Shown: positions 1 to 8,605 of the stretch, piece after piece
Layout of the letters: the number at the start of each line of letters is the position of its first letter
How positions within the stretch are numbered: the first letter of the stretch is position 1
DNA from: a virus
Lineage: Duplodnaviria; Heunggongvirae; Uroviricota; Caudoviricetes
Reading direction: 5' to 3' (one strand)
DNA: 8,605 bases
Virus record (IMG/VR): IMGVR_UViG_2695420564_000006
The notes under the pieces: generated by a model
What the model was told of the DNA's origin: nothing
Database searches by the model: none
Seen by the model: only the letters and a program-made list of their open reading frames with translations
Program-made: the position numbers and the translations under genes

Positions 1-436
1 GCTTGCTGCTTTTCCGTAAGCACCGCTCACGGCGCGCCAGAAAATTGTTTCGTTCTGACTGGGAGTGGCTTTCACGGAATGCCGCCATCCACACGGTTGC
101 AGCACGACGGTATAAGCCCCTGGACTCCAGTTCTTCAGCCTGGCGGGTCAGGCACAAAATTACCCGGGGATCGTTAGTGCCGACATAGAAATTGCGCACA
201 GGTCTGGTTTCACGAACTGGTTGTGGTTCCGGCTCCTGCGCTCTCTCAGTCAGGCGCGGGAAATGTCTACGTGTATCTCCTTCACAACGGTGAGCCACAC
301 GCCCACTCTGACGTAACTTGCTTGCTGACTGCAGAACGCGCTGCCGTGAGTAACCTGCAAAAGCATCCGCAATGTCTCCGGAAGTACACCCCGGATGGGC
401 TTCAATGAATTTCTGAACGTCATTCAAAAGACTCAT
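1..436 (-). CDS. PerC-family-like transcriptional regulator with an N-terminal extension; 5' complete, 3' end runs off the window start
   Basis: ATG at 434-436 (minus), 2 nt after the stop of the upstream gene, preceded by a G-rich SD-like stretch. Open frame of 145 codons to position 2 with no stop; absent from the ORF track because it leaves the window. Translation ends ...AEELESRGLYRRAATVWMAAFRESHSQSERNNFLARRERCLRKSSK, matching the PerC/Pch pattern (LE-x-x-GL-aromatic-RRAA-x-x-W ... RR-x-x-CL) as I recall it. Confidence 0.45.
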   Translation of the reverse strand, partial: MSLLNDVQKFIEAHPGCTSGDIADAFAGYSRQRVLQSASKLRQSGRVAHRCEGDTRRHFPRLTERAQEPEPQPVRETRPVRNFYVGTNDPRVILCLTRQAEELESRGLYRRAATVWMAAFRESHSQSERNNFLARRERCLRKSSK

Positions 437-438
437 AA

Positions 439-1257
439 TCACCCCCTGAATCCTGCCGGGATCTGGCTGTAGTCCACATTGTCGTAACTGGCTTTGAAGT
501 ACGGGTCCTCGCGTCTGGCTGCAGATACTGCAGGAACTTCCCAGGATTCTTCGAAATGACGATCCGGACCAAAGAACGTGACAGCCTGTTTCACAAATTG
601 TGTGCCGCTGTTACCCATCGCAGATACCCAGCCCGCGTAGCGTTTCACACCTTCCAGCAAGGTTTCGGGGTTTACCCCCTCATTCAAACGGGCTTTCCAG
701 GCTTTGAAGGCTGCAGATTTTGAATTGCCACCAGCACGTTTGGGATAGGCCAGCCATGCCTGCTCAAACTCCGGAGAGTATTCCGGTCGGTTTGAACGAA
801 CTCGCACAGACTCATCAGCAGATGCACCAACAGCTATTGGTTCATTGACTGGTTCTTTGACTGGTTCAAAAGAGTGACTGGTTCTGGGTGAATCTCCTGC
901 ACTACCCCCTGGTGCAACTCCTGCACTATCTGGTGAATTTGCTGCACCAGATAGTGAATTATTTGCACTACCCCCTAGTGAATCTCCTGCACCATCAAGA
1001 TGAAGGAGATAGATATTACTTGAGTTACCTTTTTCACCTTTCCGGGTGACTTTTTTTACCAGCCCGGACTCACAAAGGGCCGCAATATGATTCATCACAG
1101 AACGTTTGCTAATCTCGCACTGGTCAGCAATATGCTGGTAGCTGGGCCAGCACTCACTCTGATCGCTGGCATTATCAGCCAGCTTGATCAGAACCAGTTT
1201 TCGCAATGGATTACCCACTCGAATTTTCATCGCTTTAACCATCAGCTCCATACTCAT
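439..1257 (-). CDS. phage-type replication initiation protein: N-terminal helix-turn-helix domain, repetitive Gly/Ser/Ala/Pro linker, C-terminal domain
   Basis: 272-aa ORF in the track. N-terminal region has an HTH-like segment (SYQHIADQCEISKRSVMNHIAALCESGLV). Central low-complexity linker (GAGDSLGGSANNSLSGAANSPDSAGVAPGGSAGDSP, EPVKEPVNEP) is encoded by tandem DNA repeats. Start overlaps the stop of the upstream ORF (ATGA at 1254-1257). Sits between Rha-like and PerC-like prophage genes. Confidence 0.6.
   Translation of the reverse strand: MSMELMVKAMKIRVGNPLRKLVLIKLADNASDQSECWPSYQHIADQCEISKRSVMNHIAALCESGLVKKVTRKGEKGNSSNIYLLHLDGAGDSLGGSANNSLSGAANSPDSAGVAPGGSAGDSPRTSHSFEPVKEPVNEPIAVGASADESVRVRSNRPEYSPEFEQAWLAYPKRAGGNSKSAAFKAWKARLNEGVNPETLLEGVKRYAGWVSAMGNSGTQFVKQAVTFFGPDRHFEESWEVPAVSAARREDPYFKASYDNVDYSQIPAGFRG
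887..994. repeat. iteron-like array: five imperfect ~18-bp direct repeats at 21-24 bp spacing (candidate replication origin inside the initiator gene)
   Basis: Units at 887-904 ggtgaatctcctgcacta, 911-928 ggtgcaactcctgcacta, 932-949 ggtgaatttgctgcacca, 953-970 agtgaattatttgcacta, 977-994 agtgaatctcctgcacca. Each is bounded by GGTG...CACC-type inverted ends. Three copies of (t)tgactggttc lie just upstream at 845-884, and a moderately AT-rich stretch follows at 996-1060. Confidence 0.5.
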
Positions 1258-1478
1258 GCTGCACCTCCGAGATGCTTCATGTTTTTTCCGGAGCGAAAGG
1301 CTATAAGCGGCATACTGACGCGGTAATTACGGCCCAGCGGTTCACAAATCACCTTCTGACATTCACGGTCAACCAGGCTAACACGTAGAACATGCCCTGC
1401 AGGCGTGGTGTACCACTGACCCGGACGAGGACAACAGAAAGTATGATTGGTAAACCGTTTGAAAATATTCCGGATCAT
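1254..1478 (-). CDS. small hypothetical prophage protein (74 aa), Cys-containing, possibly metal-binding
   Basis: ORF in the track. Start overlaps the stop of the upstream Rha-like ORF (ATGA at 1475-1478) and its stop overlaps the start of the replication gene. Cys residues at 15, 16, 40 and 45 (CC-x23-C-x4-C). No family recognised. Confidence 0.35.
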   Translation of the reverse strand: MIRNIFKRFTNHTFCCPRPGQWYTTPAGHVLRVSLVDRECQKVICEPLGRNYRVSMPLIAFRSGKNMKHLGGAA

Positions 1479-1855
1479 TTGCGCCCCCTTACCTCTGAAG
1501 GGTTCAGCGACAAATTTATGAGGCAGGCCAGTGCCGAAGCATCATTAATATAGTCATACAAGCTAACAGCCAGCGGAGATTCGGCTTTTGCCAACATAGG
1601 ATAAAGCTGCTGCAGCCAGACCTGATGAATTGATGAAATGTAGGAATAGAGAACGCTGGCGTTATGTGCAACGTCGCTCAGTACAGAGGGATTTGAAAGC
1701 TGTTTCTCCATCTGGTTAAAGGCATTTATGTATGCCTCTTTGAACCGGGCAGCACGTTTACCAGTGAAGCCCATAGCAAGGAACGCGAAGCCATCGCGGG
1801 TGATTTGATAGCAAGGTAGTTTGCGGCCTGTGCAATCGGTGTAATCACTNANNGA
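1475..1855 (-). CDS. Rha-family phage regulatory protein, C-terminal part only (5' end lost at the N-run 1850-1853)
   Basis: Translation contains [51 protein letters not shown], matching the conserved C-terminal end of the Phage_pRha domain as I recall it. The expected N-terminal part of the domain is absent and the in-frame upstream sequence beyond the N-run is unrelated. The track ORF 1475-1909 uses a TTG in that unrelated sequence. Confidence 0.5.
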
Positions 1856-1973
1856 AGTTATCGACAACGACCGCGAAGACTGGAAGCGTATCTCGGCATC
1901 AATGCGCAAACAGCCTGATGCCCTTCGCTACAACCGCCAGACTATTTTTGGCCTTGTCCGTAAACGTCCGATC

Positions 1974-2378
1974 ACCCGCCGCGCATTGGGCAAAAAAGCG
2001 TGGCCCGGCGTGTGGACCAACTCGGTTTGCGGCCACCCACAGCAAGGAGAAAGTAATGAAGAGGCAGTGATCCGCCGTTGCCGCTTTGAACTGGGCGTGG
2101 AAATAACGCCCCCCGAACCGATCTATCCAGACTTCTACTATCGCGCCACCGACCCGAATGGCATTGTCGAAAATGAAGTCTGTCCGGTATTTGCCGCGCG
2201 AATTACCAGCGCGTTACAGCCCAACAATGATGAAGTAATGGATTATCAGTGGTGTGATTTAGCGCAGGTATTACGCGGTATCGATGCCACGCCGTGGGCA
2301 TTCAGCCCATGGATGGTAATGCAAGCGACAAATAGCGAAGCCAAAAAACGGTTGTCTGCATTTGCCCAGCGTAAATAA
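1974..2378 (+). CDS. idi: isopentenyl-diphosphate delta-isomerase (type 1, Nudix fold), C-terminal ~134 codons; 5' part not idi-like
   Basis: Translation [48 protein letters not shown]...[30 protein letters not shown] matches enterobacterial Idi. Convergent with lysS as in E. coli. The 38 in-frame codons upstream (1861-1973) do not resemble the Idi N-terminus. Confidence 0.8.
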
Positions 2379-2402
2379 AAAACCCCGACGATTGCCGGGG
2401 TT
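2379..2402. terminator. putative bidirectional intrinsic terminator between convergent idi and lysS
   Basis: GC-rich hairpin ccccg-acgattgc-cgggg (2383-2400), flanked by an A-run on the plus strand (2373-2382), which is a T-run for the minus-strand lysS transcript. Confidence 0.4.
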
Positions 2403-2420
2403 GTAAGCGTAGCGTAATGC

Positions 2421-3263
2421 TTATTTTACCGGACGCATCGCCGGGAACAGAATCACGTCGCGGATGGTGTGGCTGTTGGTGAACAGCATCACCATACGAT
2501 CGATACCAATCCCCAGACCCGCAGTTGGCGGTAAGCCATGTTCCAGCGCGGTGACGTAATCTTCGTCGTAGAACATCGCTTCGTCGTCGCCCGCCTCTTT
2601 CGCGGCAACCTGATCCTGGAAACGTTGCGCCTGATCTTCTGCGTCGTTCAGCTCGCTAAAGCCGTTACCGATTTCACGACCACCGATGAAGAATTCAAAG
2701 CGGTCAGTGATTTCCGGGTTAACGTCGTTACGGCGTGCCAGCGGAGAAACTTCTGCCGGATATTCAGTAATGAAGGTCGGCTGAATCAAATGTGCTTCTG
2801 CCACTTCTTCGAAGATCTCAGTTACGATACGGCCCAGTCCCCAGCTCTTCTCAACGTGAATGCCAATAGATTCAGCAATCGCTTTCGCAGAGTCGAAGTT
2901 ATCCAGATCCGCCATCTCAGTTTCCGGGCGGTATTTTTTGATCGCTTCACGCATGGTCAGTTTTTCAAACGGCTTACCGAAGTCCAGCGTCACGTCGCCG
3001 TAGGTTACTTCCGTCTTACCGAGAATATCCTGTGCCAGAGTACGGAACAGCGATTCGGTCAGCTCGATCAGATCTTTGTAATCTGCGTAAGCCATGTAGA
3101 GTTCCATCATAGTGAACTCTGGGTTATGGCGTACGGAGATACCTTCGTTACGGAAGTTACGGTTGATTTCGAACACACGCTCGAAGCCGCCAACCACCAG
3201 ACGCTTGAGGTACAGTTCCGGCGCGATACGCAGGTACATGTCGAGATCCAGCGCGTTATNNAN
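2421..3263 (-). CDS. lysS: lysyl-tRNA synthetase, C-terminal catalytic (class II) domain, ~280 codons; N-terminal anticodon-binding domain missing
   Basis: Translation ...[51 protein letters not shown]...[32 protein letters not shown] matches LysS. The frame hits a stop two codons beyond the N-run at 3260-3263, so the gene is truncated there. Confidence 0.9.
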
Positions 3264-3362: not shown

Positions 3363-4604
3363 CCACNGGCANNNNTGAGCGAAACCCTGTTCAAACCCCG
3401 CTTTAAACATCCTGAAACGTCGACGCTAGTCCGCCGCTTTAATCACGGCGCGCAATCGCCTGTGCAGTCGGCCCTTGATGGCAAAACCATTCCCCATTGG
3501 TATCGCATGATTAACCGTTTGATGTGGATCTGGCGCGGCGTTGACCCGCGTGAAATCCTCGGCGTCCAGGCGCGTATTGTGATGAGCGATGCCGAACGCA
3601 CCGACGATGATTTATACGATACAGTAATTGGCTACCGCGGCGGCAACTGGATTTATGAGTGGGCTACCCAGGCGATGGAATGGCAGCAGAAAGCTTGTGC
3701 GGAAGAAGATCCGCAAGTCAGCGGGCGTCACTGGTTGCATGCAGCCACACTGTATAACATCGCCGCCTATCCGCATCTGAAAGGGGACGATCTGGCGGAG
3801 CAAGCCCAGGCGTTGTCAAACCGCGCTTATGAAGAGGCAGCGCAACGTCTGCCAGGAAGTATGCGGCAAATGGAGTTCACTGTTCCAGGCGGTGCGCCCA
3901 TCACTGGTTTTTTGCATATGCCAAAAGGCGATGGGCCATTCCCGACAGTATTAATGTGTGGCGGGCTGGATGCGATGCAAACAGATTATTACTCCCTTTA
4001 TGAGCGCTATTTTGCACCGCGCGGCATTGCAATGTTGACTATTGATATGCCTTCGGTCGGTTTCTCTTCAAAATGGAAGCTCACCCAGGACTCCAGTCTT
4101 CTGCATCAGCATGTTTTAAAGGCGTTGCCGAATGTGCCGTGGGTAGATCACACGCGCGTCGTGGCCTTTGGTTTCCGTTTTGGCGCTAACGTTGCTGTGC
4201 GTCTGGCTTACCTTGAATCACCGCGTTTGAAAGCGGTGGCTTGCCTTGGTCCGGTAGTTCATACCTTGTTAAGTGACTTTCAGTGCCAGCAACAGGTGCC
4301 GGAAATGTACCTTGACGTTCTGGCGAGTCGTTTAGGGATGCACGATGCTTCAGACGACGCTTTGCGCGTAGAGCTGAACCGCTATTCGTTAAAAGTGCAA
4401 GGGTTGCTGGGGCGTCGCTGTCCAACGCCAATGTTATCAGGTTACTGGAAGAACGATCCTTTTAGCCCGGAAGAGGACTCGCGGTTAATCGCTTCGTCAT
4501 CTGCTGACGGTAAATTGTTAGAGATTCCGTTCAATCCGGTGTATCGGAATTTTGACAAAGCGCTTCAGGAAATCACCAACTGGATCGAAAAACGATTGTG
4601 TTAA
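3363..4604 (+). CDS. frsA: fermentation/respiration switch protein FrsA (alpha/beta hydrolase); native ATG absent
   Basis: Translation from codon 2, (T)[30 protein letters not shown]...NWIEKRLC, matches FrsA over its full length. N's at 3367 and 3372-3375 fall in codons 2-5. The bases where the ATG should be (3360-3362) read cgc. An in-frame ATG at 3345 lies in unrelated upstream sequence. Confidence 0.9.
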
Positions 4605-5063
<459 letters not shown>

Positions 5064-5073
5064 CTGACATGTA

Positions 5074-5103
5074 CCGGGTTAGATGCTCGTACATCTAACC
5101 CGG
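5074..5103. terminator. perfect 12-bp-stem hairpin downstream of crl (possible terminator or RNA structure)
   Basis: ccgggttagatg (5074-5085), loop ctcgta, catctaacccgg (5092-5103), exact reverse complements. No immediate U-run; a T-run follows at 5116-5121. Confidence 0.45.
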
Positions 5104-5121
5104 CCTGGAATATTAGTTTTT

Positions 5122-5155
5122 GTAGGCCGGATAAGGCGTTCTCGTTGCATCCGGC
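5122..5155. repeat. REP (repetitive extragenic palindromic) element
   Basis: The reverse complement gccggatgcaacgagaacgccttatccggcctac fits the E. coli REP consensus (GCCGGATGCGGCG...CGCCTTATCCGGCCTAC). Lies in the crl-phoE intergenic space. Confidence 0.7.
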
Positions 5156-5163
5156 AATATTCG

Positions 5164-5976
5164 TTAAAATTGATATGTCATTCCAACCGCGACAATATCA
5201 TCATTATTAATATTCAACTTGTTATTGCTATCCAGTTGGTTGATTTTATAATCAACAAACGCTGACATATTTTTGTTGAAAAAATATGTTGCACTGACAT
5301 CAATATAATTGACCAGATCCTCATCACCGATGCCTTCAATATCTTTTCCTTTTGATAATACATAACCTAACGATGGACGCAGACCAAAATCAAATTGATA
5401 TTGCGCGACGGCTTCAAAATTTTGTGTTTTATTAGCAAAACCGCCAGAAATTGGCGTCATGTTACGTGTTTCAGAATAAAAAGTTGCCAGGTAAATATCG
5501 TTGGCGTCATATTTCAGGCCTGTTGCCCATGCTTCTGCGCGCTTGCCTGTACCACGGCTTTGCAGGTTTTGCTCATTGGTGCGGTCAGAATTAGTATAGG
5601 CTCCGCTGATGGCAAAATCGCTGCCGCCAAAGTCATAACTCAGTGAAGTACCGAATCCATCACCGTTTTGCTTTTTCACATCGCGATTTTCGTTTTTTCC
5701 TTGATATTGCAGGGTTAAGTTCAGGCCATCTACAATGCCGAAGAAGTCGGTATTACGATAAGTTGCCAGTCCGCTGGCGCGCTTGGTCATAAAGTTGTCG
5801 GTTTGTGCGGAGGAATCGCCACCAAATTCCGGGAACATATCGGTCCAGGCTTCTACGTCATATAACGCGCCCAGGTTACGACCATAATCAAAAGAACCCA
5901 AATCTTTATATTTCAATCCGGCAAACGCGAGGTGCGTTTTTTGCTGTGTGGTATCGCTTTCAGCTTTATTCCCGGC
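5164..5976 (-). CDS. phoE: outer-membrane phosphoporin PhoE, C-terminal ~270 codons; N-terminal ~90 codons including signal peptide missing
   Basis: Translation [53 protein letters not shown]...VAVGMTYQF, with the porin C-terminal F, matches PhoE. The frame breaks at the N-run 5977-5983 and sequence beyond is unrelated. The track start at 5916 is a TTG inside the gene. Confidence 0.9.
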
Positions 5977-6027
5977 NNNCNGNGGCGATGAGTACCGCTA
6001 ACAACAATGTTGGCGGCGCTGCGCCGG

Positions 6028-6119: not shown

Positions 6120-6217
6120 CTCTGGTGACTTTATCCGTAAATAATTTAACCCACTCCACAAAAAGGCTCAACAGGTTGGTGGTTCTCACAACCAAAAGCG
6201 GCANANNCNNCGCNNNG
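6120..6217. other. F-like plasmid oriT-like fragment (nic-proximal region), partly N-masked
   Basis: ggtggttctcacaaccaaaagcggca-N-a-NN-c-NN-cgc-NNN resembles the F oriT segment ggtggttctcaccaccaaaagcaccacaccccacgc (reverse complement of the nic-site strand). It is immediately upstream of the orf169-like start, as on F-like plasmids. Confidence 0.4.
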
Positions 6218-6889: not shown

Positions 6890-7630
6890 CCANNACTGGC
6901 CCGCGCGGTGGTTGCCGGGTTAGCGCAAGCAGATACGCTGAGGATGCGTTTTACGGAAGATAACGGCGAAGTCTGGCAATGGGTCGATGATGCGCTGACG
7001 TTCGAACAGCCAGAAATTATTGACCTGCGTACCAACATTGATCCGCACGGTACTGCGCGGGCATTAATGCAGGCGGATTTACAACAAAACCTGCGTATCG
7101 ATAGTGGTAATCCGCTTGTTTTTCATAAGATTATACAGGTGGAGGATAATCGTTGGTACTGGTATCAACGTTATCACCATTTGCTGGTCGATGGCTTCAG
7201 TTTCCCGGCCATTACCCGCCAGATAGCCAACATTTATTGTGCCTGGCTGCGTGGCGAACCTACGCCTGCGTCGCCGTTTACTTCTTTCACTGATGTAGTG
7301 GAAGAGTACCAGCAATATCGCGAAAGCGAAGCCTGGCAGCGTGATGCGGCTTTCTGGGCGGATCAACGTCGTCAACTACCGCCGCCAGCGTCACTTTCGC
7401 CTGCACCTTTACCGGGGCGCAGTGCCTCGGCAGATATTCTGCGCCTGAAACTGGAATTTACTGACGGGGAATTCCGCCAACTGGCAGCGCAACTTCCGAC
7501 CGTACAACGTACCGATTTAGCTCTCGCGCTGGCGGCATTGTGGCTGGGGCGATTGTGCAACCGCATGGACTATGCCGCCGGATTTATCTTTATGCGCCGT
7601 ATGGGCTCGGCGGCGTTGACGGCTACCGGA
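6890..7630 (+). CDS. entF: enterobactin non-ribosomal peptide synthetase EntF, N-terminal condensation-domain fragment (~247 codons)
   Basis: Translation P-x-LARAVVAGLAQADTLRMRFTEDNGEVWQWVDDALTFEQPEIIDLRTNIDPHGTA...YWYQRYHHLLVDGFSFPAIT...LCNRMDYAAGFIFMRRMGSAALTATG matches EntF residues ~30-275, including the HHxxxDG condensation motif (HHLLVDG). Flanked by unrelated sequence at both ends. Confidence 0.85.
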
Positions 7631-8531: not shown

Positions 8532-8605
8532 NNNANTATCAGCAGGAGCTGCTGGAAGGAAAACCAAAGCCCAACAACAGCGAACTGGTGGTACGCAACT
8601 GGTAT

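Follow-up and report, generated by a model that had tools for sequence, protein, structure and literature searches.

Four minus-strand genes, packed into the first 1,855 positions of an 8,605-nucleotide stretch of DNA (the window, as the whole stretch is called here), raise two questions: what kind of mobile element do they come from, and how might that element begin its replication? The first has a plain answer, as the module is real but ordinary, already known and catalogued as the Eru6 replication type. The second leads to a putative origin inside the initiator gene and to a short tail at the end of the initiator that resembles the end of host DnaT.

A lambdoid phage fragment in a chimeric contig

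The window is the entire length of a chimeric contig from an Escherichia albertii-like draft. An assembly seam (NANN) lies at 1850-1853 and the homology to phage ends there, the match spanning exactly positions 1-1849. The 1.85-kb phage piece has been joined to unrelated chromosomal genes by faulty assembly. A preliminary description of this DNA, made from the sequence alone, had the element cut at both ends; it is, but since the contig is chimeric, the right-hand cut is the assembly seam and the left-hand cut is the contig end. The same description contrasted the module with the "housekeeping" content of its neighbours. That contrast is an assembly artefact and is uninformative on the insertion site; because the contig is chimeric, conclusions on insertion site or gene neighbourhood drawn from the window are unwarranted.

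Given a contig that is demonstrably chimeric, the phage piece might be contaminating E. coli DNA, from another organism than the rest. It is 98% identical to E. coli prophages, whereas the identity of the chromosomal pieces is about 90% with E. coli and 99% with E. albertii. However, lambdoid modules are near-identical across Escherichia, Shigella and Salmonella, with positions 827-1276 being 92-100% identical even in Salmonella phage ST64B, so a high identity to E. coli phages would be expected for an E. albertii prophage as well. Moreover, the exact 272-aa initiator (Rep) protein encoded here is on record in the source contig and in no other. Contamination is accordingly judged improbable.

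The match of 1-1849 to E. coli prophages is colinear, in a single piece and 98.3% identical. Full-length matches of 96-98% were found in phages mEp460, phiSTEC1575-Stx2k, PhiR40_1, Stx2a_WGPS2 and Stx2a_1447, and one of 84% in ST64B. The module in the window is one more copy of a common one: it is near-complete in roughly a tenth of complete E. coli genomes (475 of 5426 hold at least 80% of 1-1849) and partial in half (2821 hold some part).

What surrounds the module in these homologues identifies the element. In mEp460, cI (HTH and S24 peptidase), cro (HTH_3) and cII (Phage_CP76) are followed by the genes for Ash-Rha, orf74, Rep and PerC, and then by those for Dam, a LexA-like protein, RusA, KilA-N, Q, holin, lysozyme and Rz. 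The prophage of E. coli S88 has the gene order of mEp460 along with terminase, portal, capsid, tail, integrase, holin and lysozyme genes, and ST64B and Stx2a_WGPS2 share that order. In all four, the module stands after a divergent cI/cro pair and a cII-like gene and before nin-region genes and Q. The database entries for mEp460 (44.5 kb) and ST64B (40.1 kb) are complete phage genomes. Wherever a complete context was examined, it is a temperate phage or prophage of 40-58 kb with cI/cro/cII, Q and lysis genes; virion genes (terminase, portal, capsid, tail) and an integrase gene are present where the stretch of homologue context reached them. The same order in mEp460, S88, ST64B and Stx2a_WGPS2 bears out the lambdoid layout proposed in the preliminary description. 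Positions 1-1849 therefore very probably come from inside the early-right (PR-type) operon of a lambdoid temperate phage of the SfV/ST64B/mEp460 type. Membership in that operon rests on the homologues because the promoter, cI, cro and the genes after the PerC-family gene lie outside the window. Transcription from the cI/cro switch would run through cro, the cII-like gene, the genes for Ash-Rha, orf74, the initiator, the PerC-family protein, Dam, the LexA-like protein, RusA and KilA-N, and Q.

The preliminary description had also named a phage satellite, such as a phage-inducible chromosomal island (PICI), as a possible source. A PICI or P4-like element in place of a full-size phage would fit a window that holds no virion genes and an element cut at both ends, and the Ash domain of full-length Rha homologues takes its name from a P4 protein. 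However, all inspected contexts are phages of 40-58 kb in which the lysis and structural modules are complete, no primase-helicase (pri-rep) gene was seen, and the genes follow the order of a lambdoid PR operon. A satellite origin hence has hardly any likelihood left.

A temperate phage may also have decayed, in which case the source strain would hold a prophage remnant that no longer functions, as E. coli K-12 does in CPS-53/KpLE1. In many genomes the name that PGAP gives to the PerC-family gene is yfdN, partial copies of the module are common, as the above counts show, and in the Eru6 reference prophage IS629 splits the PerC-family gene. On the other hand, the two complete and both partial genes of the window are open, the piece shares 98% identity with viable phages, and its substitutions relative to ST64B are biased to synonymous ones; its truncations are due to the contig end and the assembly seam and not to biology. 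Decay of this copy is unlikely, and the genes are discussed below as those of a temperate phage.

Packing and gene families of the operon

The four tightly packed minus-strand genes are present where they had been placed from the letters alone. Direct reading found the two ATGA overlaps at 1475-1478 and 1254-1257 (plus strand TCAT at both) and, at 434-441 on the minus strand, the initiator stop, a 2-nt spacer and the start of the PerC-family gene (TGAttATG; plus strand CATAATCA). It also found Shine-Dalgarno-like runs (AAGGGGG, GGAGG and GGGGGTGA, one each) 5' of the three internal starts, 5-7 nt before the start codons and within the preceding gene. All three stop/start junctions are retained in mEp460, the E. 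coli S88 prophage and ST64B, the last being 84% identical overall; the TGAttATG junction is kept in mEp460 and S88, and its spacer is 1 nt in ST64B. From cro to rusA in mEp460 there are eight junctions in a row, and each is either an overlap or a gap of no more than 2 nt. Since the junctions are conserved in homologues and those of the mEp460 cro-rusA stretch are all tight, the packing is conserved in the operon and not due to chance; it is also normal for phage early operons.

A promoter scan found no sigma-70-like promoter in 1-1855, and the single antisense terminator-like hairpin there is within chance expectation. In the window, Rfam returned no RNA families and PADLOC no credible defence-system match. 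With stops and starts that overlap or abut, a Shine-Dalgarno sequence for each start and no internal promoter detected, the packed genes would be expressed from one message, and the geometry of their junctions suggests that they are likely translationally coupled.

Profile searches, proposed in the preliminary description as a check on its guesses, found Phage_pRha, an unnamed 74-aa family, HTH_36 and PerC among the four proteins. The three guessed families pass their curated Pfam thresholds and the contexts are phages, in agreement with a regulation and replication module of a mobile element. The guess of a Rha-like gene holds for the family (Phage_pRha, PF09669, 66.6 bits against a curated Pfam threshold of 29.9, E 3.1e-18) but not for a whole gene. 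What lies at 1475-1849 on the minus strand is an Ash-Rha regulator gene cut at the seam, with only its 3' third, or 124 C-terminal codons out of 383, left; this truncated gene covers positions 44-91 of the 91 in the PF09669 profile and aligns to positions 201-324 of the 324 in phrog_821. The open reading frame apparently reaching 1909 is a read-through of the ambiguous bases 1850-1853 into unrelated DNA. The full-length homologue in mEp460 has both a Phage_ASH and a Phage_pRha domain.

The next gene, orf74 (1254-1478, minus strand), encodes a conserved small protein of 74 aa in the unnamed family phrog_1153 (E 3.7e-44). It differs from its ST64B counterpart by 23 synonymous and 10 non-synonymous codons and is, from this comparison, under purifying selection. 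The family is narrow, with 40 clusters that are from Enterobacteriaceae throughout. The structure model (pLDDT 76) predicts a small SH3/KOW-like beta-barrel; searches with the model gave no significant structural match, only weak SH3/KOW/Tudor-like ones with E no better than 0.018, none of which points to a function. The preliminary description had singled out this gene for its cysteines. All four are present, but conservation is limited to C40 and C45. A zinc finger was considered and rejected: C15 and C16 are not conserved, C40, C45 and H29 alone are, and the model is the SH3/KOW-like barrel.

[quoted passage not shown] The earlier PerC assignment agrees with the match to PF06069 (34.9 bits against a threshold of 22.6, residues 98-145). 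The protein also belongs to phrog_1324, "transcriptional activator" (E 3.6e-68); its N-terminal part resembles winged-helix regulators and its C-terminal part is the PerC domain.

The initiator, its putative origin and its tail

Between orf74 and the PerC-family gene, positions 439-1257 on the minus strand encode a protein of 272 aa that had been described as an HTH_36-type initiator. It scores 41.5 bits against the curated HTH_36 threshold of 25 (E 1.1e-10) and falls in PHROG replication-initiator families (phrog_270, E 3e-87), and its C-terminal half matches PHROGs labelled "DnaD-like helicase loader" and "primosomal protein". An AlphaFold model shows a winged helix at aa 1-88; the iterons then encode a disordered linker (aa ~91-157), after which come a small helical domain (aa ~160-215) and a flexible tail. 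Foldseek with this model returned winged-helix proteins alone, DnaD-N and plasmid initiators among them, at E values of 0.01 or worse, and a PDB sequence search returned only spurious low-complexity matches.

An origin inside this gene had been suggested from the letters, and the repeats found there support one. Five direct repeats of about 20 nt with the core GTGAATCTCCTGCAC, putative origin iterons, lie at 885-994, spaced 21-24 nt apart, at aa 88-125 of the 272-aa initiator. The core has five matches at up to 3 mismatches where 0.14 are expected, and none of 200 shuffles reached five. The iterons are kept in ST64B, where they fall within the 92-100% identical block that comprises the DNA-binding domain and the iterons (827-1276), the flanks being 64-89% identical. 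Close homologues of the initiator (242-302 aa) vary in length by whole repeat units. Adjoining the iterons at 846-884 is a second set of three copies of TGACTGGTTC, which encodes an EPV(K/N)EPV linker and whose copy number also differs among homologues. As both sets code for a low-complexity linker, conservation of the repeats could partly reflect the protein level. On the other flank of the iterons, 994-1036 holds the most AT-rich 40-mers beside them and is a candidate unwinding region, although at 70% A+T the stretch is modest. A further iteron-like site, at 271-285, has no conserved counterpart at the matching position of ST64B and is probably due to chance.

These features suggest how the element may replicate. 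The 272-aa protein would be a lambda-O-like "solo" initiator, the N-terminal winged helix of which may bind the five iterons in its own coding sequence, where the origin would fire. Its C-terminal helical domain and tail would recruit the host helicase machinery. Host recruitment is invoked since the initiator gene is followed by neither a helicase nor a loader gene of the phage; no such gene is annotated in the early region, from cI to the lysis genes, of mEp460, S88, ST64B or WGPS2.

The tail offers a candidate means of such recruitment. The last nine codons of the initiator (442-468, minus strand) read SQIPAGFRG and match the end of host DnaT, SQIPPGFRG; eight of nine residues are identical and the motif is at the extreme C-terminus in both proteins. 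Sister subfamilies of the initiator have DDFGESGENLNF-type tails. Tails of the DnaT-like IP(P/A/T)GFRG form are found in initiators that are otherwise unrelated, namely Eru6 Rep, Gifsy-1 O, vB_EcoS-666R9 O and SPN1S Rep. In vB_EcoS-666R9 O and SPN1S Rep, 92-94 residues align to the DnaT C-terminal region, tail included, and in Gifsy-1 and 666R9 the tail-bearing O genes are immediately 5' of phage DnaC homologues.

The initiator of the window is like DnaT in that the modelled layout of its end, a small helical domain and then a flexible tail, resembles that of the DnaT C-terminal domain, while the N-terminal halves of the two proteins are unrelated. We considered whether its C-terminal domain is a demonstrable homologue of the DnaT domain and rejected this. 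The C-terminal half has no match to Pfam DnaT (PF17948), to which E. coli DnaT scores 75 bits; hhalign of the initiator family with DnaT gave a probability of 0.5%, which is not significant, and only the nine-residue tail is shared. Comparison of the family with the O proteins of 666R9 and Gifsy-1 by hhalign was not significant either.

We tentatively propose, as an idea with somewhat less than an even chance of being right, that IP(P/A/T)GFRG-COOH is a portable docking motif copied from DnaT by unrelated phage initiators of enterobacteria, plugging the origin-bound initiator into host helicase loading. Its docking partner would most likely be DnaC or the DnaB-DnaC complex, since the host dnaT is directly upstream of dnaC and the O genes of Gifsy-1 and 666R9 are directly upstream of DnaC homologues. 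No description of a DnaT-like tail in phage initiators was found in the literature searched, which is not proof of absence, and none of a partner for the flexible DnaT tail in the accessible literature. If the proposal is true, the motif would explain how phages with a "solo" initiator replicate without a P or DnaC gene, and it would give the flexible tail of DnaT a function.

Could the 272-aa HTH protein instead be a transcription regulator, with the repeats a slippage-prone coding linker and the origin elsewhere in the phage? The HTH_36 model is generic for winged helices, regulators account for the weak matches in NCBIfam and PADLOC, and the repeats encode a disordered linker rich in Gly, Ser and Ala. 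However, the protein strongly matches many independent PHROG families of replication initiators, and its C-terminal half matches families of helicase loaders and primosomal proteins. The gene also has the position of O in lambda and the same iteron geometry, and its C-terminal tail is common to DnaT and to bona fide O proteins adjoining DnaC homologues. In addition, no second candidate initiator is annotated in the early region of mEp460 or S88. The regulator reading is very unlikely, and we continue to treat it as the initiator.

Comparison with known systems

The closest counterparts among phages are mEp460 (gp41-gp44), SfV (orf37-40) and ST64B (sb41-sb43), with mEp460 97.9% identical and colinear and ST64B 84% identical. 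Their stop/start junctions and iterons are identical or near-identical to those of the window, which differs in holding a 1.85-kb internal fragment only; ST64B also differs in sequence outside the block of DNA-binding domain and iterons, as given above. The K-12 element CPS-53/KpLE1 has counterparts from the same gene families in yfdN and yfdO, and neighbours of the module in mEp460 are annotated as CPS-53-gene-like. CPS-53/KpLE1 is a decayed remnant, whereas the copy in the window matches intact phages. The PICIs of Gram-negative bacteria and the P4-like satellites are likewise mobile elements with compact regulatory and replication operons, but the module has no primase-helicase gene and its homologous contexts are all full-size phages.

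The function of lambda O is established, and its N-terminal domain is the DNA binder. As in lambda, the initiator gene stands in the PR operon after cII. Lambda has four iterons at aa 117-145 of the 299-aa O, and the window has five at aa 88-125 of 272; in both, iterons of about 18-20 bp are spaced by 20-24 bp in the part of the gene that codes for the inter-domain linker. The resemblance is one of architecture and of an "O-like" PHROG family, BLASTP finding no similarity of the 272-aa initiator to lambda O. The two systems differ in that no P-, DnaC- or DnaB-type gene follows an initiator of the window type, the PerC-family gene being next, and in that lambda O is without a DnaT-like tail. 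The AT-rich stretch of the window is also weaker and is on the opposite side of the iterons.

The module belongs most closely with Eru6, a replication type whose defining pair is pRha and HTH_36 proteins encoded downstream of cI (Fagerlund et al. 2022, PMC8951638). Phage_pRha and HTH_36 proteins are both in the window, with the adjacency to cI visible in homologues only. The published Eru6 reference, Stx2a_WGPS2 (AP012537.1; PMC8951638), has the same order of Ash-Rha, a 74-aa ORF, an HTH_36 "replication protein O" and a PerC-family gene, and is 97.6% identical over 100% of 1-1849. In the reference, the PerC-family gene is interrupted by IS629, while the copy in the window is open and cut by the contig end; neither stx genes nor cI are visible in the window. 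The interruption in the reference would predict the PerC-family gene to be dispensable. In the literature, the Eru6 region counts as non-lambdoid, with an unknown mechanism, and according to the paper that defined the Eru types, nothing is known on how Eru phages replicate (PMC8951638). From the comparisons made here, the region appears to have a clear lambda-O-like logic, with a winged-helix initiator and putative iterons in its own gene. The DnaT-type tail adds a concrete idea of how phages without a loader may recruit the host helicase, a matter relevant to how Stx phages are induced and replicate.

Gene organization of the module

Four minus-strand genes joined by two ATGA overlaps and one TGAttATG junction had been proposed, and this layout was borne out by direct reading of the sequence, the ORF list and the translations. 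Read on the minus strand, TCAT at 1475-1478 and 1254-1257 of the plus strand gives ATGA, and CATAATCA at 434-441 gives TGAttATG. The reading frame of the Rha fragment ends at 1475 and is followed on the same strand by orf74 (1254-1478, 74 aa), the gene for the initiator Rep (439-1257, 272 aa) and a PerC-family ORF (2-436, 145 codons) that is open at the left end of the window. All three internal starts have a Shine-Dalgarno-like purine-rich run (AAGGGGG, GGAGG and GGGGGTGA) 5-7 nt upstream, within the preceding gene, and a promoter scan detected no sigma-70-type promoter in 1-1855. The three junctions are kept even in the Salmonella phage ST64B, and at each of the eight junctions from cro to rusA in phage mEp460 the genes either overlap or lie no more than 2 nt apart. 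A terminator-like hairpin with a T-run lies at 1034-1059 (plus strand), antisense to the Rep gene and adjoining the iterons; with one such site found versus 1.8 expected, it is within chance.

Gene identities were assigned by Pfam, PHROG and NCBIfam profile searches, which confirmed the families guessed earlier (Rha-like, initiator and PerC-like). The 5'-most ORF is a C-terminal fragment, since its match to the Phage_pRha profile is confined to the second half (positions 44-91 of 91) and that to phrog_821 to the final 124 positions. Rep has an N-terminal HTH_36 domain and matched numerous PHROG families of replication initiators (phrog_270, E 3e-87); the PHROGs matched by its C-terminal half are annotated 'DnaD-like helicase loader' and 'primosomal protein'. 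In the 3'-most ORF a PerC domain (34.9 bits versus the Pfam cut-off of 22.6) follows an N-terminal region similar to winged-helix regulators. IS629 disrupts the PerC-family gene of the Eru6 reference prophage Stx2a_WGPS2 (L088 6155-7504), suggesting that this gene is dispensable for lysogeny or maintenance of that prophage. No defence-system or RNA-family matches were found.

orf74 is a real gene; its codon differences from the ST64B copy are 23 synonymous and 10 non-synonymous. The product belongs to a PHROG of unknown function (phrog_1153) and to a narrow family of 40 clusters, Enterobacteriaceae throughout and every one annotated 'hypothetical'. Conservation in the family is limited to C40, C45 and H29, thus only two of the four cysteines, which rules out a four-Cys zinc finger. 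The structural model (pLDDT 76) predicts a small SH3/KOW-like beta-barrel with an N-terminal helix, for which no significant structural neighbours were found.

A chimeric contig

The window in its entirety (8605 nt) is a single chimeric contig, CCBU01000360.1 of assembly GCA_000940615.1, the only record with the exact 272-aa Rep protein. It joins short pieces of non-adjacent loci: the prophage, idi-lysS, frsA-crl-phoE, what reads in translation as an EntF-like fragment, and purT. The joins are mostly at clusters of ambiguous bases (1850-1853, 3260-3263, 3367-3375, 5977-5983, 6204-6216, 6752, 6893-6894, 7631 and 8532-8536). In any E. coli genome at most 30% of the window is found in one place, with a median of 8 separate places per genome, and the best single block, frsA-crl-phoE, has only 89.6% identity. 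The idi-lysS part shares 99-99.8% identity with Escherichia albertii NBRC 107761, which marks the chromosome as E. albertii-like. Positions 1972-3259 and 3376-5976 both show this pattern (99-99.8% to NBRC 107761, only ~89.6% to E. coli), in contrast to the prophage piece, for which identity to E. coli prophages is 98%. NBRC 107761 also has ~146 nt more than the window between idi and lysS (window 2381-2401; L003 2631-2777), bounded by a 21-nt sequence present as a single copy in the window; either an indel mediated by repeats or another collapse in the assembly may account for the difference.

At the edge of the module, phage homology ends exactly at 1849. The Rha fragment is followed by 120 nt from a prophage exonuclease gene (1854-1973, 98-99% identical to E. 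coli prophages), after which the 3' part of idi starts from ~1972 at a further seam without N. It is therefore an artefact that the Rha ORF seems to continue to 1909; likewise, the exonuclease piece and the idi seam make the 158-aa 'idi' ORF (1902-2378) an artefactual chimeric reading frame. Since the contig is chimeric, the phage/housekeeping neighbourhood is without biological information. The contrast between the module and its 'housekeeping' neighbours drawn in the preliminary description, and the right-hand cut of the element at the N seam, are thus products of assembly.

Lambdoid phages as the home of the module

Positions 1-1849 align with E. coli prophages as a single ungapped piece of up to 98.3% identity. 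Of 5426 complete genomes, 475 contain at least 80% of this piece and 2821 contain some portion of it. Full-length matches of 96-98% were found in isolated or induced phages (mEp460, phiSTEC1575-Stx2k, PhiR40_1, PhiR55_1, Stx2a_WGPS2 and Stx2a_1447), and matches of 84% in the Salmonella phages ST64B and 118970_sal3. In mEp460, cI (HTH and S24 peptidase) is followed by divergent cro (HTH_3), a cII-like gene (Phage_CP76), Ash-Rha (383 aa), orf74 and Rep, then PerC, Dam, a LexA-DBD protein, RusA, KilA-N, DUF968/HNH, Q, holin, lysozyme and Rz. ST64B and Stx2a_WGPS2 have the same gene order, and the E. coli S88 prophage additionally encodes terminase, portal, protease-capsid and tail genes and an integrase adjoining yjjG. 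From these four contexts and the tight junctions, the module belongs to the early-right operon of a lambdoid temperate phage of full size. A satellite or phage-inducible chromosomal island had also been considered, but the homologues sit in full-size phages and no pointers to either were found in the homologous contexts inspected. Accordingly, the earlier reading of a mobile-element regulation and replication module with lambdoid layout and an internal origin stands, without its satellite option, neighbour contrast and right-hand cut.

The module is already known. The same arrangement of a pRha protein and an HTH_36 protein is catalogued as replication type 'Eru6', with Stx2a_WGPS2 as reference (Fagerlund et al., PMC8951638), and isolated phages as well as hundreds of genomes carry near-identical copies. 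According to the same authors, nothing is known of the replication mechanism of Eru phages. Overall interest is low, the DnaT-like tail of Rep being the one thread possibly worth experiment.

Putative origin and DnaT-like tail

Repeat searches, including TRF, located five ~20-nt direct repeats at 885-994, spaced 24, 21, 21 and 24 nt, next to three TGACTGGTTC repeats at 846-884. The 15-nt iteron core has five matches (at most 3 mismatches) in the window versus 0.14 expected, and none of 200 shuffles had as many. The iterons encode residues 88-125 of the 272 in Rep. In the AlphaFold model this segment is predicted to be disordered and links a winged helix modelled with confidence (residues 1-88) to a small helical domain. 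Positions 827-1276, covering the DNA-binding domain and the repeats, are 92-100% identical to ST64B versus 64-89% for the rest of the stretch; the binding domain and its presumed sites move as a single mosaic unit. The boundary of this block between the E. albertii-associated copy and the Salmonella phage is sharp. Among close Rep homologues (242, 250, 272, 278, 283, 294, 296 and 302 aa) the length changes in whole repeat units, the pattern that tandem DNA repeats should produce; the steps include 66-nt (22-aa) units (window 846-994 versus homologues P0001-P0094). Iteron position, block conservation in ST64B and whole-unit length variation support a function at the DNA level, and on this reading Rep would bind the iterons and fire the origin. 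A sixth iteron-like site, GTGTATCTCCTTCAC with 2 mismatches, lies at 271-285 in the PerC-family gene, ~600 nt from the array. It is kept in 98%-identical E. coli phages but is probably due to chance because it is absent at the homologous ST64B position.

Lambda O offers a parallel for this arrangement, with four iterons at residues 117-145 of 299 compared with five in Rep, although the AT-rich stretch adjoining the Rep iterons (994-1036, a modest 70% A+T) is on the opposite side from that of lambda. Rep has no similarity to lambda O by BLASTP. In mEp460, S88, ST64B and Stx2a_WGPS2 the initiator is not followed by any annotated helicase or loader gene, which sets the module apart from the lambda O/P type.

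Rep ends in SQIPAGFRG (442-468), and these nine residues agree at eight positions with the C-terminal nine of host DnaT, SQIPPGFRG. A tblastn search of the phage collection with the last 40 residues of DnaT returned 63 records, mostly replication initiators, and in the three opened the match ends at the initiator stop codon. SPN1S Rep matches DnaT 86-179 (63% identity, E 1e-40), vB_EcoS-666R9 O matches DnaT 93-179 (37%, E 4e-9) and Gifsy-1 O matches through a 19-residue tail; all three terminate in IP(P/T)GFRG. Besides window 442-468, the stretches concerned are L085 2501-2620, L086 2501-2557, L087 2501-2557 and L002 39174-39713. An IP(P/A/T)GFRG-COOH ending is common to otherwise different phage initiators. 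Homology between Rep and DnaT at the level of domains is unsupported. Within the Rep family, sister subfamilies retain the helical domain but end in other tails. The Rep tail may be a peptide through which the initiator docks onto the loading machinery of the host. A DnaC homologue comes directly after O in Gifsy-1 and 666R9, which parallels the host, where dnaC comes after dnaT.
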